Virus record (IMG/VR): IMGVR_UViG_2563366831_000005
Reading direction: 5' to 3' (one strand)
Source of the DNA: a virus
Lineage: Duplodnaviria > Heunggongvirae > Uroviricota > Caudoviricetes
Length of the DNA stretch: 17,162 nucleotides
Each line of letters opens with the position of its first letter. Position 1 is the stretch's first letter. Shown here in pieces: positions 1-8,838 of this stretch. The translations under genes and the position numbers were made by a program. Below the pieces are notes generated by a model, which saw nothing but the letters and a program-made list of their open reading frames with translations, searched no databases and was not told where the DNA came from.

Positions 1-569
1 GTGCCGGACGGTCGACGGGCCCATAACGCCTGCTCCAGTGCATCCAGCACGAATGTCGTTTCCATGGACGATGAGACCCGCCACCCCACGATGTATCCGG
101 CAAACACATCAATGATGAACGCCACATAGACGAAGCCCCGCCATGTGCTGACGTAAGTAAAATCAGCCACCCACAGCTGGTCAGGTCGTTCTGCCACGAA
201 CTGACGGTTTACGCGGTCGCCTGCGGCAACGGCTTTCCGGCTGATGGTCGTACGGACCTTTTTACCCCGGAGAACACCGGCAAGTCCCATAACCGCCATG
301 AGACGTGCCACAGTGCATCTGGCCACTCTGATACCTTCCCGTAACAACTGACGCCAGACTTTACGCACACCGTATACCTTGTGATTTTCATCGTATACGC
401 GCTGTATCTCTTTCTTCAGCCAGTCATCGCGCTGCGCACGGGCACTGCGTTTATCCGGATGATGTCGCTGTTGCTGACAGTGGTAATACGTTGACGGGGC
501 AATATGCAGTTCGCTGCATAGCGGTCCGACCCCGTACTGCTCACGCAGCTTATCCAGCAGTGGCATCAT
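1..569 (-). CDS. IS3-family transposase OrfB (DDE integrase domain), 3' end beyond window
   Basis: Minus-strand translation from ATGATG at 569-564 reads [72 protein letters not shown]...[57 protein letters not shown] and stays open to position 1. It is absent from the ORF track only because it has no stop inside the window. Confidence 0.85.
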
Positions 570-892
570 TTTTTCCAGAGGCGGTCGAACTCCGCCTTCG
601 CAAAATAAGCGGAAGCCTGGCGAAGGATATCGTTACTGCGGCGCAGTTCACGATTTTCACGTTCCAGCTCTTTCAGACGCTGACGTTCAGCGGTGGTGAG
701 CCCTCCATCACCACCCCCGGTATCCCGCTCATGCTGGCGAACCCAGACACGCAGAGTCTCCGGCGTACAGCCAATCTTTGGAGCAATGGAACAAATTGTC
801 GCCCATTGTGAGTCATATTCGCTCTGACTTTCCAGAACCATACGGACTGCCCGTTGACGGACTTCGGGGGAAAAACGAGTATTTTTAGTCAT
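566..892 (-). CDS. IS3-family transposase OrfA (helix-turn-helix / leucine-zipper protein)
   Basis: 108 aa [60 protein letters not shown]...[34 protein letters not shown], typical OrfA. Its TGA stop overlaps the orfB ATG. Confidence 0.9.
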
Positions 893-3536: not shown

Positions 3537-3621
3537 AGTCAGAGATAACAATCAACTAATACTGTTTTGTTGATTTTTGCTTGTAATTGGCGTTCTGGTC
3601 TGAGTTTTGTGGAGTAAGTTG

Positions 3622-4005
3622 ATGCGTGATATTCAGATGGTTCTTGAGCGTTGGGGAGCGTGGGCGGCTAATAATCATGAAGATGTGACCTGGTCGTCCA
3701 TTGCCGCCGGTTTTAAGGGATTAATTCCTTCAAAAGTAAAATCTCGCCCACAATGTTGTGACGATGACGCGATGATCATTTGCGGGTGCATGGCCCGTCT
3801 GAAAAAGAACAACAGCGATTTGCATGATTTATTAGTAGATTATTATGTAGTCGGTATGACATTCATGTCACTGGCAGGTAAGCATTGCTGCTCTGATGGT
3901 TATATCGGGAAAAGGTTACAGAAGGCTGAGGGCATAATTGAAGGGATGTTAATGGCATTAGATATCCGGTTAGAGATGGATATCGTTGTTAATAACTCTA
4001 ATTAA
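3622..4005 (+). CDS. Q: Late-gene antiterminator Q (DLP12 QuuD / phage-21-like type)
   Basis: 127 aa from ATG 3622 ([60 protein letters not shown]...), GGAG ribosome-binding site at 3611-3614. Cysteine cluster consistent with a zinc-binding Q. Sits immediately upstream of the late region. Confidence 0.8.
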
Positions 4006-4194: not shown

Positions 4195-5292
4195 TTAGAA
4201 CTGGTAAACCAGACCTACAGCAACGATGTCATCAGTGCTTACACCGAGTGCTTTAGTGAAGTCATTTTTGTCAAGCAGGTTGATTTTGTAATCAACGAAA
4301 GTAGACATATTTTTGTTGAAGTAATAGGTTGCACCTACATCAACATATTTGACTAAGTCCTGATCGCCCCATACTCCAAGATCCTTACCTTTAGATTGCA
4401 GGTAAGCAACGGACGGACGCAGACCGAAATCGAACTGATATTGTGCAACAGCTTCGAAGTTTTGGGCTTTATTAGCAACGAAGTGATCAGCAAATACAGT
4501 CATATTCTGGGTTTCAGAATAGGTAGTGGCCAGGTAAATGTTGTTAGCGTCATATTTCAGACCTGCGGCCCAAACTTCTGCATTTTTACCGGAAGCAAAT
4601 ACTTCAGGAAGAACTTTCCCTGCATTAACTTGAGTGTCGGTACGATCAGATTTCGCATAAGTTGCACCGATACCGAATCCTTCGTATTCATAGGTAGCAG
4701 AGAAACCGAAGCCATCACCGTTACCTTCAGTGTAGTTATCGAAATCGCTACGATCGTTTTTGCCTTGGTACTGAGCAGCAAAGTTCAGACCATCAACCAG
4801 ACCAAAGAAGTCGTTGTTACGATAGGTTGCAACACCAGTGGTGCGACCAGTCATGAACACATCTGTTTGGGTCCAGGTATCGCCACCGAATTCTGGCAGA
4901 ACGTCAGTCCACGCACCGATGTCGTATGCTACACCGTAGTTACGGCCGTAATCGATTGAGCCGTAGTCACCGAATTTCAGGCCTGCAAATGCAAGACGGG
5001 TTTTGTCTTTGGAGGAACCTTGAGATTCAGCGCGGTTGCCTTTGAATTCATATTCCCACTGACCGAAACCAGTCAGTTGATCGTTGATTTGGGTTTCACC
5101 TTTGAAGCCAAGACGGGCATAAGTAGTATCACCATCATCTGCATCATTAGAGGAGAAGTAGTGCTTGGCATTAACTTTCCCGTACAGATCCAGCTTGTTA
5201 CTGTCTTTATTATAAATTTCAGCTGCCTGAGCAGACATCGCCATCAGTACTGATGCAGCTACAGCAGAAATTGCCACTGTTAATTTTTTCAT
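4195..5292 (-). CDS. nmpC: Phage-encoded OmpC-family outer-membrane porin (NmpC/Lc type), intact
   Basis: 365 aa with a signal peptide ([23 protein letters not shown]|AEIYNK) and typical porin sequence through the C-terminal ...VGLVYQF. Uninterrupted by any IS. Confidence 0.9.
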
Positions 5293-5880: not shown

Positions 5881-6096
5881 ATGAAATCCATGGATAAGTT
5901 AACAACGGGTGTCGCCTATGGCACCTCAGCAGGTAGTGCCGGTTACTGGTTTTTACAGCTGCTCGATAAAGTCACGCCCTCACAGTGGGCAGCAATAGGT
6001 GTGCTGGGTAGCCTGGTATTTGGCCTGCTGACGTACCTGACAAACCTTTATTTCAAGATTAAAGAAGATAAGCGCAAGGCTGCGAGAGGTGAATAA
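5881..6096 (+). CDS. S: Class II holin, phage-21 S-type pinholin with dual-start motif
   Basis: 71 aa [71 protein letters not shown], with two transmembrane segments and Met1/Met4 dual starts. GGTGGGG ribosome-binding site upstream. The track's 5836 start is an unsupported extension. Confidence 0.85.
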
Positions 6097-6590
6097 TGCC
6101 TCCATCATTACGAAAAGCCGTTGCTGCTATTGGTGGCGGAGCAATTGCTATAGCATCAGTGTTAATCACTGGCCCAAGTGGTAACGATGGTCTGGAAGGT
6201 GTCAGCTACATACCATACAAAGATATTGTTGGTGTATGGACTGTATGTCACGGGCATACAGGAAAAGACATCATGCTCGGTAAAACGTATACCAAAGCAG
6301 AATGCAAAGCACTCTTGAATAAAGACCTTGCCACTGTCGCCAGACAAATTAACCCGTACATCGAAGTCGATATACCGGAAACAACGCGCGGCGCTCTTTA
6401 CTCATTCGTTTACAACGTGGGTGCTGGCAATTTCAGAACATCGACGCTTCTTCGCAAAATAAACCAGGGCGATATCAAAGGCGCATGTGATCAGCTACGT
6501 CGCTGGACATATGCTGGCGGTAAGCAATGGAAAGGTCTCATGACTCGTCGTGAGATTGAGCGTGAAATCTGTTTGTGGGGTCAGCAATGA
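6096..6590 (+). CDS. R: SAR endolysin (phage-21 R-type lysozyme with N-terminal signal-anchor-release domain)
   Basis: 164 aa. N-terminal Gly/Ala-rich weakly hydrophobic segment ([19 protein letters not shown]) followed by a T4-lysozyme-like domain. ATG overlaps the holin stop (TAATG). Confidence 0.9.
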
Positions 6591-7048
6591 ACAGAGTAAC
6601 CGCGATTATCTCCGCTCTGGTTATCTGCATCATCGTCTGCCTGTCATGGGCTGTTAATCATTACCGTGATAACGCCATTACCTACAAAGCCCAGCGCGAC
6701 AAAAATGCCAGAGAACTGAAGCTGGCGAACGCGGCAATTACTGACATGCAGATGCGTCAGCGTGATGTTGCTGCGCTCGATGCAAAATACACGAAGGAGT
6801 TAGCTGATGCGAAAGCTGAAAATGATGCTCTGCGTGATGATGTTGCCGCTGGTCGTCGTCGGTTGCACATCAAAGCAGTCTGTCAGTCAGTGCGTGAAGC
6901 CACCACCGCCTCCGGCGTGGATAATGCAGCCTCCCCCCGACTGGCAGACACCGCTGAACGGGATTATTTCACCCTCAGAGAGAGGCTGATCACTATGCAA
7001 AAACAACTGGAAGGAACCCAGAAGTATATTAATGAGCAGTGCAGATAG
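6587..7048 (+). CDS. Rz: Rz inner-membrane spanin
   Basis: 153 aa from ATG 6587, overlapping the endolysin stop (ATGA). N-terminal transmembrane segment then a coiled-coil-like periplasmic region; matches lambda Rz. Confidence 0.85.
6807..6989 (+). CDS. Rz1: Rz1 outer-membrane lipoprotein spanin, nested in the +1 frame of Rz
   Basis: 60 aa [60 protein letters not shown]: lipobox VVGC and a proline-rich mature peptide, wholly embedded in Rz. Confidence 0.8.
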
Positions 7049-7079
7049 AGCTGCCCATATCGATGGGCAACTCATGCAA

Positions 7080-7373
7080 TTATTGTGAGCAATACACACG
7101 CGCTTCCAGCGGAGTATAAATGCCTAAAGTAATAAAACCGAGCAATCCATTTACGAATGTTTGCTGGGTTTCTGTTTTAACAACATTTTCTGCGCCGCCA
7201 CAAATTTTGGCTGCATCAACAGTTTTCTCCTGTCCAATTCCCGAAACGAAGAAATGATGGGTGATGGTTTCCTTTGGTGTTACTGCTGTCGGTTTGTTTC
7301 CAACAGTAAACGTCTGTTGAGCACATCCTGTAATAAGCATTGCCAGAGCGGCAGAAAACAACATTTTTTTCAT
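7080..7373 (-). CDS. bor: Bor outer-membrane lipoprotein (Iss-family serum-resistance lysogenic-conversion protein)
   Basis: 97 aa from the internal Met of track ORF 7080-7421: MKKMLFSAALAMLITGCAQQTFTVGNKPTAVTPKETITHHFFVSGIGQEKTV..., lipobox LITGC, AGGA ribosome-binding site on the minus strand. Matches lambda Bor. Confidence 0.85.
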   Translation of the reverse strand: MKKMLFSAALAMLITGCAQQTFTVGNKPTAVTPKETITHHFFVSGIGQEKTVDAAKICGGAENVVKTETQQTFVNGLLGFITLGIYTPLEARVYCSQ

Positions 7374-7735
7374 CTTATTATCCTGCATTGTTAAAAACGG
7401 CAGAATCCTATGTGACAACAATTAAACGATAGTTAAATGGATTGATGAAAATTAAAACTATATAGGTGTACGCTCAGACTATTGGAGGAAGTTGGGGGCA
7501 CTCAGAATCCTGTGGAATGAAATAAACCGCTCTTTCTGTCCATTACCCTTTTAGCTGCGCTGTATCGTCGCCGTATTCCCGCATTAACCATGACCGTAGC
7601 CCGACGGGGAATTCCTTCTGCGTGAGTGTGCGGGAATAATCAAAAACGATGCACACCGGGTTTTACTGTGCTGACAGACGCAGGGTTACCCTCATAGTCG
7701 CTTTTCCGGTGCGATGGTGGAAGAAACCGGGATGT

Positions 7736-7930
7736 TTATTCATCATCACTTTGGATTGATGTATATGCTCTCTTTTCTGACGTTAGTCTCCGACGGCAGG
7801 CTTCAATGACCCAGGCTGAGAAATTCCCAGACCCTTTTTGCTCAAGAGCGATGTTAATTTGTTCAATCATTTGGTTAGGAAAGCGGATGTTGCGGGTTGT
7901 TGTTCTGCGGGTTCTGTTCTTAGTTGACAT
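7736..7930 (-). CDS. YlcI-like small protein (DUF3950-type), function unknown
   Basis: 64 aa MSTKNRTRRTTTRNIRFPNQMIEQINIALEQKGSGNFSAWVIEACRRRLTSEKRAYTSIQSDDE. Same position (just upstream of cos and the Nu1 homolog) as ylcI in DLP12, as recalled. Confidence 0.55.
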   Translation of the reverse strand: MSTKNRTRRTTTRNIRFPNQMIEQINIALEQKGSGNFSAWVIEACRRRLTSEKRAYTSIQSDDE

Positions 7931-8129
7931 GAGGTTGCCCCGTATTCAGTGTCGCTGATTTGTATTGTCTGAAGTTGTTTTTACGTTAAGTTGATGCAGA
8001 TCAATTAATACGATACCTGCGTCATAATTGATTATTTGACGTGGTTTGATGGCGTAGATGCACGTTGTGATATGTAGATGATAATTATTATCATTTTTCG
8101 GGTCCTTTCCGGCGATCCGACAGGTTACG

Positions 8130-8141
8130 GGGCGGCGACCT
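8130..8141. other. cos: cosN cohesive-end site (12-nt lambda-type overhang GGGCGGCGACCT), flanked by cosQ (left) and cosB (right)
   Basis: ...ATCCGACAGGTTACG|GGGCGGCGACCT|CGCGGGTTTTCGCTATTTATGAAAATTTTCCGG... reproduces the junction of lambda's right and left ends as recalled. The Nu1 gene follows about 180 bp downstream. Confidence 0.8.
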
Positions 8142-8318
8142 CGCGGGTTTTCGCTATTTATGAAAATTTTCCGGTTTAAGGCATTTCCGTTCTTCTTCGT
8201 CGTAACTTAATGTTTTTATTTAAAATACCCCCTGAAAAGAAAGGAAACGACAGGTGCTGAAAACGAGCTTTTGGGCCTCTGTCGTTTCCTTTCTCTGTTT
8301 TTGGCCGTGGAATGAACA

Positions 8319-8838
8319 ATGGAAGTCAACAAAAAGCAGCTGGCTGACATTTTCGGTGCGAGTATCCGTACCATTCAGAACTGGCAGGAACAGGGAATGC
8401 CCGTTCTGCGAGGCGGTGGCAAGGGTAATGAGGTGCTTTATGACTCTGCCGCCGTTATAAGATGGTATGCCGAAAGGGATGCTGAAATTGAGAACGAAAA
8501 GCTGTGCCGGGAAGTTGAAGAACTGCGGCAGGCCAGCGAGACAGATCTCCAGCCAGGGACTATTGAGTACGAACGCCATCGACTTACGCGTGCGCAGGCC
8601 GACGCACAGGAGCTGAAAAATGCCAGAGACTCCGCTGAAGTGGTGGAAACCGCATTCTGTACTTTCGTGCTGTCGCGGATCGCAGGTGAAATTGCCAGTA
8701 TTCTCGACGGGATCCCCCTGTCGGTGCAGCGGCGTTTTCCGGAACTGGAAAACCGACATGTTGATTTCCTGAAACGGGATATCATCAAAGCCATGAACAA
8801 AGCAGCCGCGCTGGATGAACTGATACCGGGGTTGCTGA

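Follow-up and report, generated by a model that had tools for sequence, protein, structure and literature searches.

The 17,162-nucleotide (nt) stretch of DNA analysed here (the window; IMG/VR record IMGVR_UViG_2563366831_000005) is the late region of a lambdoid prophage, and the interval between its bor and ylcI-like genes holds a conserved element of ~175 nt that recurs across lambdoid phages and whose folding as a plus-strand RNA is supported by covariation within its helices. The first-pass annotation had described this part of the window as a minus-strand accessory island next to cos, in which bor and a 64-amino-acid (aa) YlcI-like gene are separated by a stretch lacking a convincing open reading frame (ORF), and had offered a deletion scar or regulatory or small-RNA elements as explanations. 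The observation was confirmed and the interpretation partly supported. Positions 7557-7732 are widely conserved and show covariation typical of a folded RNA, which agrees with the suggestion of a regulatory or small-RNA element; this conserved segment is not, however, part of a minus-strand island, as it reads in late-operon sense, on the plus strand, and is independent of bor and ylcI. We tentatively read the gap as a control region and spacer belonging to bor, followed by a cis-acting structured segment of the Q-dependent late transcript. The interval and the two genes that border it are laid out as follows.

7080-7373, minus strand: bor, an Iss-like outer-membrane lipoprotein of 97 aa (Lambda_Bor PF06291, 6.4e-31).
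7374-7735: the gap from bor to ylcI, 362 nt.
7374-7449, minus strand: bor 5' untranslated region (UTR) and predicted sigma-70 promoter, recognized by reading.
7428-7556: lineage-specific spacer that goes with this bor allele (434/21 type), from blastn joints and flank comparison.
7557-7732, plus strand (late-operon sense): conserved structured-RNA-like element of ~175 nt, from conservation, borders, covariation and strand bias.
7719-7735: module junction, where GGAAGAAACCGG is the 3' end of the element and the ylcI module starts at GAUG...
7736-7930, minus strand: ylcI-like gene, 64 aa (DUF3950 PF13132, 2e-20; YlcI/YnfO in the Prokaryotic Genome Annotation Pipeline, PGAP).

In a sensitive blastn search with the gap alone, ~7553-7733 of the window matched hundreds of lambdoid phages with unrelated flanks at 75-87% identity. 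Over 7557-7732 the identity range in lambdoid phages (lambda, DLP12, 434, Shiga toxin (Stx) phages and Salmonella ES18) was 75-100%, and phage 21 was also among the carriers. The element was matched by blastn in 438 phage records and in 4579 of 5426 complete E. coli genomes (~84%), where it occupied 11833 places (median 2 per genome, maximum 11) and the annotated feature under the match was nearly always "none". The range, as drawn from the phage and E. coli collections, is narrow and comprises lambdoid phages of Escherichia, Shigella and Salmonella. The lambda element lies at ~46868-47031, ending 11 nt short of the p78 stop codon, and that of MG1655 (DLP12) at ~579010-579174; both are complete, with a different middle part that blastn failed to bridge. 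In Stx phages the element is found between bor and a different terminase, and in the Salmonella phages ES18, SPN3UB and S1xx, which have no bor, it follows rha at the extreme right end of the map.

Scanning IMG/VR with a sequence pattern provided 120 loci, and 126 copies were gathered across all collected loci (labelled in the style L001; L002 is lambda and L249 is Sakai). Border mapping on 78 unique longer slices from these copies revealed sharp limits, conservation beginning at GCGCUGUAUCGUC and ending at GGAAGAAACCGG, with an element length of 161-180 nt. A covariance model was built from an alignment of 66 unique 199-nt copies (A2), a training set from which lambda was absent, and it scored the window copy at 206 bits, the lambda copy at 151 bits and the copy in Sakai prophage Sp5 at 173 bits. 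The model found no second copy in the window, no true match in 100 (of 120) unrelated genome stretches taken with the loose pattern ATCGTC-N58-86-AACGATGCA, and no element in four phages that do possess Rz-type spanins (HK022, P22, SE1 and Hafnia phage yong1). A separate scan for variants of the element core returned 4 contigs only. On E. coli plasmids, 695 matches to approximately the first 103 nt of the element were seen (e.g. NZ_CP104593.1 62670-62773), and these may travel with iss, a bor homologue, in lambda-derived plasmid segments.

The predicted fold has three domains, whose parts are listed here with their coordinates in the window.

7562-7652, plus strand: 5' domain, a long irregular hairpin (RNAalifold).
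7562-7568/7646-7652, plus strand: P1.
7574-7584/7628-7638, plus strand: P2, with 6 of 11 pairs changed on both sides and 98% of cells paired.
7595-7600/7620-7624, plus strand: P3.
7607-7609/7614-7616, plus strand: P4.
7653-7691, plus strand: invariant linker ACACCGGGUUUU followed by P5, from A2.
7658-7661/7688-7691, plus strand: P5, GGGU with ACCC, 80% paired, closing a hypervariable hairpin.
7697-7732, plus strand: 3' domain, a possible H-type pseudoknot with the purine-rich loop GGUGGAAGAA.
7697-7701/7711-7715, plus strand: S1, GUCGC with GCGAU, crossing S2.
7704-7710/7726-7732, plus strand: S2, UUCCGGU with ACCGGGA.

In the A2 consensus structure, 97.5% of the cells are standard pairs. Twelve of 32 pairs were changed on both sides, compared with 6.2 +/- 1.4 in shuffled alignments, and none of 500 shuffles reached 12. 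Adding P5 and S1 raised the number of double-changed pairs to 17 (11.1 +/- 1.6 in shuffles), and controls in which the register was slid gave 30-62% pairing against 94-97.5% for the true structures. The P2 helix of L026 differs by about four compensatory pairs at once (CACCUCCACA/UGUGGAGGU versus UAUUCCCGCA/UGCGGGAAUA). Double changes affect five of the seven S2 pairs (CCGGU/ACCGG, CCUGU/ACAGG and UCGAU/AUCGA); the CCUGU/ACAGG form is present in 24 copies and UCGAU/AUCGA in ES18-like copies, and G.U intermediates also occur. Two of the five S1 pairs are double-changed (columns 170-190 and 172-188) and a further column pair, 171-189, exists as three pair types; with its extension S1 shows 85% pairing, and lambda-type copies fail to align to it. 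On reading, loop lengths of 2, 0 and 10 nt would be geometrically plausible for a pseudoknot, and the 3' domain as modelled may adopt one of H type. An alternative helix, CCGGGUUU/AAACCGG, is favoured by minimum free energy and was rejected, as the CCUGU/ACAGG covariants break it.

The strand on which the element would fold as RNA is indicated by its wobble pairs. G.U cells outnumber A.C cells by 262 to 16 (~16:1), which brings pairing to 97.5% of cells for the plus strand, compared with 85.7% for the minus strand, and the RNAalifold energy is -28.1 kcal/mol for the plus strand versus -12.8 for the minus strand. Folding as a plus-strand RNA is supported by this strong bias together with the compensatory changes. 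The internal loops of the 5' domain (AUUAAC, GAGUGUG and AAUCAAAAA) are invariant. The middle region behaves differently from its surroundings: most of the 18 variants that were folded retain a GGG/CCC closure around an unrelated hairpin, while those of lambda/DLP12 type lack this closure and fold in another way. The element is non-coding. Variability is 0.168, 0.168 and 0.163 in the three phases, with no 3-base periodicity, the longest open frame varies between copies, and indels of 1 nt and 10 nt fall within the conserved part.

None of the 4227 models of Rfam 15 matched 7400-7750 on either strand, even at E <= 10; the sole match in the window at gathering score was ALIL, at 495-611. An intrinsic terminator scan of 7400-7750 found no terminator-like site, the UUUU run at 7662-7665 being separated from P1 by 9 unpaired nt and S2 being followed by no U-run. 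A promoter scan and flank comparison detected no conserved promoter at the element, and no complement of the invariant loops was found elsewhere in the window. A Chi site was considered and dismissed, since exact GCTGGTGG occurs in 0 of 66 copies and only 7/8 look-alikes such as GATGGTGG are found. The octamer GATGGTGG at 7713-7720 has the orientation required for RecBCD that enters from the right cos end; Chi-like octamers are present in many copies, and lambda-type copies (e.g. DLP12) have an unrelated octamer at this place.

The element belongs to neither bor nor ylcI, its constant partner being the late operon. Every one of the 108 copies in which Rz could be detected has it upstream and in the same orientation, and every one of the 71 with Nu1 or an Stx-type small terminase gene has that gene downstream, again in the same orientation. 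This position is fixed with or without bor, rha, ybcV/W and ylcI. The interval from Rz to the element is empty or is occupied by bor (minus strand), rha (plus strand) or other genes, and that from the element to cos/terS measures 35-300 nt where no moron is present and otherwise contains ylcI or ybcV-ybcW-ylcI. Around the element, the stretch left untranslated on the plus strand amounts to 1.3 kb in the window and ~2.3 kb in lambda. In loci L008, L039, L056 and L125 the element starts ~12 nt past the Rz stop codon, which leaves no room for a promoter. Many copies are preceded by a short conserved stretch ending in an in-frame TGA ~10 nt upstream of the element, which we take for the rha 3' end or a residue of that gene. 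In L009, L010, L027 and other loci, from phages without rha, a conserved ...GATAAAGGTATTCAAGCCTGA is located 10-45 nt upstream of the element; its resemblance to the rha 3' end suggests an ancestor with rha beside the element and subsequent deletions.

Locus L013 carries two full copies (5047-5245 and 5997-6195) that flank a plus-strand gene of ~200 aa, the whole lying between cos/Nu1 and a 103-aa ORF downstream of Rz, and in A2 the variants of the 5' and middle domains reassort freely across the invariant core. Together with the apparent rha 3' remnants beside the element in loci that lack rha, the double copies and the free reassortment mark the element, as judged by comparing copies, as a favoured crossover point. 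A perfect palindrome, GTGCGACCGTGGTCGCAC, is present 10-20 nt past the element in L013, L020, L022, L053 and L019, and in L013 it occurs on both sides of copy 1.

Aligning the bor-to-cos region with lambda and DLP12 showed that the slot is larger in both of these. The blastn homology with lambda is broken into three joints, and the interval does not match an annotated non-coding stretch of lambda from end to end.

Window 6900-7427, lambda 46279-46809: 92.7% identity, bor and 54 nt upstream of it.
Window 7553-7663, lambda 46865-46974: 82% identity, first part of the element.
Window 7719-8129, lambda 48092-48502: 96% identity, ylcI and cos.

Between the joints, lambda has 1.1 kb with p78 (ybcV-like) and p79 (ybcW-like), and DLP12 has ybcV/ybcW, in keeping with the earlier remark that related prophages carry additional genes in this slot; the extra DNA between element and ylcI amounts to 1.06 kb in both. 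At the right border the window reads GGAAGAAACCGG followed directly by GAUGUUUAUUCA, which runs into the ylcI stop codon. Lambda reads GGAAGAAACCGG followed by ACGUUAUGAUU, then p78 and p79, then GGGAAGAACGCGG followed by GAUGUUCAUUC, and then ylcI. The lambda p78/p79 cassette is thus bracketed by the last 12 nt of the element, GGAAGAAACCGG, and a degenerate copy, GGAAGAACGCGG, at ~47020-47031 and ~48091-48103 (1121-1132 and ~2192-2204 of locus L002). The junction in the window would represent either the form that preceded insertion or a clean deletion between repeats, and both histories fit the sequences. Whichever of the two applies, nothing inside the element is missing.

These observations suggest a role for the element in the late transcript. 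With no promoter or terminator of its own and, in some phages, a start ~12 nt after the stop codon of the plus-strand gene before it (Rz, and apparently also rha), the element would be transcribed only as part of the Q-antiterminated late RNA from pR', and it would punctuate this mRNA in cis at the boundary between the lysis cassette and the cos-terminase region. A GG/UUUU motif at 7659-7665 is nearly invariant in A2 and single-stranded in the predicted fold. RNase E prefers single-stranded RN/WUU-type motifs, and could cleave at this predicted linker between the 5' hairpin domain and the 3' domain. The lysis mRNA would then end in a stable 5' hairpin that protects its 3' end, the packaging/head mRNA would begin with the structured 3' domain, its 5' end likewise protected, and cleavage would set the relative stabilities of the two late mRNA halves across the long untranslated stretch. 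As a secondary role, the invariant core may offer a patch of homology for swapping the left and right arms of lambdoid phages, and the same patch would serve the gain and loss of the morons bor, rha, ybcV/W and ylcI. In Hfq-CRAC (cross-linking and analysis of cDNA) data from uninduced cells, no peak was present at the Sakai Sp5 copy (~1275450-1275630); the element would accordingly be silent in lysogens, which counts in favour of transcription with the late operon.

Several points weigh against this role. The putative RNase E site is a motif match, and a simple stability element would not need invariant loops. The element is not universal, and its role is therefore dispensable for lambdoid lytic growth. 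The fold of the window copy is no stabler than that of shuffled sequence (z = -0.09 for the plus strand and -0.50 for the minus strand). The covariation rests on a handful of lineages, given the low diversity of the alignment (the effective sequence number of the model is 2.13) and lineage effects, a naive all-against-all screen giving many lineage-driven pseudo-covariations, and the pairs were counted on the same sequences that yielded the structure.

Two of the competing explanations share much of the evidence with a cis-acting segment of the late transcript. The element might be cut out of the late transcript, or be transcribed from an unrecognized promoter, and act as a free, stable non-coding RNA (ncRNA), either titrating a host RNA-binding protein or small RNA (sRNA) in the manner of a decoy or sponge, or working as a catalytic RNA. 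The invariant loops and linkers (AUUAAC, GAGUGUG, AAUCAAAAACGAUGCACACCGGGUUU and GGAAGAA) point to specific recognition, the multi-domain fold with its possible pseudoknot and the size are like those of functional ncRNAs, the middle hairpin, hypervariable and set between conserved scaffolds, is reminiscent of a specificity module, and the element is accessory in the manner of morons, being absent from HK022, P22 and SE1. Yet a free RNA is hard to reconcile with the lack of a conserved promoter or terminator, of an Hfq-bound RNA at the Sakai copy in uninduced cells, of any RNA family or ribozyme class in Rfam 15 at E <= 10 and of a complementary target within the window, and we consider it unlikely. 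Likewise improbable is a functional RNA of ~175 nt, hitherto undescribed, that has an activity of its own and is encoded by lambda and the majority of E. coli genomes; it might split the late transcript by self-cleavage, sequester a host RNA-binding protein or RNase late in infection, or serve as a structure-specific site of moron recombination. The conservation could instead reside in the DNA, the element being a module-boundary linker in the sense of Susskind and Botstein that is homogenized by recombination and has no RNA function. The sharp borders with unrelated flanks, the free reassortment of 5' and middle variants, the duplicated copies around a gene in L013, the short repeats of the 3' motif flanking the lambda ybcV/ybcW cassette and the insignificant thermodynamic z-score would all follow from such a linker. 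Recombination does not explain the compensatory double changes in the helices, the ~16:1 excess of G.U over A.C on one strand, the strictly fixed orientation or the fact that unpaired stretches are the most invariant, and a linker alone is an improbable account.

The remaining explanations fare worse. A minus-strand regulatory region upstream of bor, or a ylcI-bor intercistronic region, would fit the HK629 record, in which a sigma-70 promoter (TGGACA-N15-TACAAT) is annotated on the minus strand inside the 5' domain, and would fit the gene order, since 4-11 nt separate the element from the stop of ylcI (ybcV in lambda), with bor further downstream in the same direction. The HK629 hexamers are nevertheless confined to the lambda lineage, the window having CGGTCA...TACGGC in their place, many phages carry the element without bor or a minus-strand neighbour (ES18 and the Rz-element-terminase layouts), and the strand bias favours the plus strand, which makes a bor-related function very unlikely. 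Annotators of Stx phages placed a plus-strand ORF of 67-81 aa across the element (ORF-84 in AP004402; ECs_1218 in Sakai), and blastx of other copies finds this ORF, through DNA conservation. The frame is interrupted by a TGA in the window, in ES18 and in most groups, and this, along with the indels, shifting frames and lack of periodicity already described, leaves next to no likelihood for a small protein-coding gene, and the hypothetical proteins called over the element (L006 1996-2241; ECs_1218, L249 9476-9679) are probably spurious. A functionless scar left by the loss of ybcV/ybcW-like genes would account for the 1.06 kb by which lambda and DLP12 are longer and for a junction at a short direct repeat, as deletion predicts. 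The deletion scar of the first-pass annotation can apply at most to 7719-7735, since the remainder of the gap is the bor control region and an element that is complete here and in lambda (151 bits), and the degenerate right-hand repeat of lambda fits insertion into a window-like ancestor equally well. For 7557-7732 a functionless scar was ruled out by conservation, and for the gap as a whole it is highly improbable.

The left part of the gap is best understood from the side of bor. The earlier finding of no convincing ORF holds, every ORF of the gap being <=37 aa and neither a conserved ORF nor a 3-base periodicity having been found there across relatives; the left border given earlier, 7422, is the end of the longest mechanical ORF (with a TTG start), and with the true bor ATG at 7373 the gap is 7374-7735. 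Positions 7374-7427, with the bor Shine-Dalgarno sequence and a TTTAAT -10 box, are common to lambda, homology extending to 7427. The predicted promoter consists of this -10 box (7426-7421) and a -35 box, TTCATC (7449-7444), with a 17-nt spacer; a consensus promoter scan left it uncalled, and the -35 box matches at 3 of 6 bases. From 7374 to ~7450, the sequence is thus inferred to be the 5' UTR of bor and a plausible predicted promoter. The adjoining spacer (7428-7556) is replaced by other, shorter sequence in lambda, DLP12 and Stx phages, and it has no conserved ORF, as judged by the indels between close relatives.

Both minus-strand genes were assigned as in the first-pass annotation. Bor matches profile positions 1-75 of 75 of PF06291 at 106.7 bits (cut-off 25), its lipobox cysteine (MKKMLFSAALAMLITGC, LITGC) was seen by reading the translation and supports the family call, and the homologues in relatives bear the name bor or iss. 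The 64-aa protein matches DUF3950 at 72.8 bits (cut-off 25), the search that had been proposed for it, and is identical to DLP12 YlcI at 62 of 64 aa, two C-terminal residues being different. A search of the PDB with its sequence gave chance matches only, with no solved homologue. The single-sequence AlphaFold2 model has a predicted local distance difference test (pLDDT) score of 60; it contains two helices, 19-32 and 34-55, and lacks a confident strand. At that score it is of little use for searching by fold, and a ribbon-helix-helix-like fold for YlcI/YnfO would be a guess from the sequence pattern. Lambda 48109-48303 (minus strand) is an intact 64-aa ylcI ORF, identical to DLP12 YlcI, and carries no annotation in NC_001416.

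The other features of the window conform to the late region of a lambdoid prophage.

Left end: IS3-family insertion sequence fragment.
5' of Q, plus strand: ninB, dam, ninX and rusA.
3607-4005, plus strand: Q.
4195-5292, minus strand: porin moron (Porin_1, 1e-156).
Between the porin moron and R, plus strand: S21-type holin.
6096-6590, plus strand: R.
6587-7048, plus strand: Rz, the i-spanin (Pfam Phage_lysis PF03245, 2.6e-54).
6807-6989, plus strand: Rz1, embedded in Rz.
8124-8141: cosN, with the right end of mature DNA after 8129, then the 12-nt cohesive end GGGCGGCGACCT.
Right of cos, plus strand: Nu1, A and head genes.

Rz is the final late-operon gene ahead of the gap region and shares 99-100% identity with Rz of phage 434 and lambda-like phages. 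It converges with bor across a spacer of 31 nt (7049-7079), and the inverted repeat GCCCAT-atcg-ATGGGC at 7053-7068 is exactly as first described, with no U-tract on either strand; the terminator scan called nothing at this repeat, and the spacer has the same content in lambda and 434. At cos, window position 8129 pairs with the right end of lambda, 48502, in blastn. The region 6900-8350 is 98-99% identical to phage 434, mEp332 and numerous wild lambda-like isolates, and many E. coli chromosomes contain prophages that match 7374-7935 at 100% identity; in these, PGAP calls iss and ylcI and nothing in the gap. At 97-100% identity, the bor-gap-ylcI layout recurs in phage 434 and in many wild phages of lambda type; among complete E. 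coli genomes, 953 of 5426 have it at this identity. Elsewhere in the window, the IS3-family fragment at 495-892 comprises an ALIL frameshift pseudoknot (495-611, minus strand, 120 bits) and an OrfA-like HTH_Tnp_1 ORF (566-892, minus strand) just upstream of the ninB region. The porin gene is full-length and of Gram-negative type, and this minus-strand moron between Q and the S21-type holin occupies the position of nmpC in DLP12. A near-perfect long inverted repeat at 8235-8297, AGAAAGGAAACGACAGG...CTGTCGTTTCCTTTCT, between cos and the start of Nu1, attracted several spurious matches to microRNA (miRNA) models in Rfam.

Lambda is among the most closely studied genomes, and its late operon is usually drawn as uninterrupted protein genes. 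A sharply bounded, covarying RNA-like element nevertheless averages two copies per E. coli genome and is unannotated or mis-annotated, as hypothetical protein or promoter. No description of it was found in the openly searchable literature, using keywords and literal 16-mers (subscription-only papers being outside this scope), and the annotations of the 438 phage records and of E. coli RefSeq genomes contained no description beyond "hypothetical protein" and one predicted promoter. If the element is real, it opens the question of how a 25-kb late transcript is split into parts with different fates. It also marks the exact site at which the lysis and packaging arms of lambdoid phages are swapped and virulence morons (bor/iss) are taken up. 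Existing records are affected as well: Stx phages probably have spurious ORF calls across the element, and the lambda reference record omits an intact ylcI.

The element may be compared with several known systems. The put sites of HK022 are cis-acting antitermination RNAs of two ~35-nt stem-loops just downstream of the early promoters. Like them, the element is a cis-encoded multi-hairpin RNA with conserved loops that would act on its own transcript, but it resides in the late operon, 1-2.5 kb past the late promoter, it is absent from HK022, and it has no apparent similarity to put. Self-cleaving ribozymes (hammerhead, twister, pistol and hatchet) and orphan phage RNA motifs are likewise intergenic, sense-oriented conserved folds in phage operons; the element differs from these in matching no Rfam 15 class, in having no recognizable catalytic core and in its narrow range. 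With the sRNAs AgvB/AsxR, Pas and StxS it shares a place in the late region of lambdoid prophages among morons and a conserved scaffold with a variable part. The AgvB/AsxR-type sRNAs are encoded just downstream of Q/pR', are 51-80 nt long, possess terminators and are Hfq-bound in lysogens (PMC4104026), whereas the element follows Rz, measures ~175 nt, has no terminator and shows no Hfq-CRAC peak in Sakai. The Rfam models RF02702 and RF02703 did not match the element, and none of the listed Sakai Hfq peaks EcOnc01-64 falls at the Sp5 copy; EcOnc06 (~177 nt) is located downstream of Q in Sp17. The known prophage sRNAs were considered and set aside, as none maps to the element: svsR lies at cI, and Rfam includes Pas, AgvB and AsxR, whose genes are near Q/pR'.

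The linkers of modular phage evolution have sharp borders, unrelated flanks, reassorting variants and repeats flanking cassettes, all of which the element has too, but helix covariation, strand-specific wobble and a fixed orientation are unexpected of linkers. The RNase III sites of T7, the sib retroregulator of lambda and hairpins of the repetitive extragenic palindromic (REP) or puf type are, like the element, structured segments between gene blocks of a polycistronic transcript with no promoter or terminator of their own, and in the element, too, hairpins lie on both sides of a single-stranded, U-rich candidate cleavage site. The element is much larger than these (~175 nt and three domains, with a possible pseudoknot), has invariant loops and shows no similarity to them in sequence or model, and cleavage is putative here. 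It is filed as a new RNA family with a putative function, of a general kind that is familiar, namely a structured element inside a phage polycistronic transcript.

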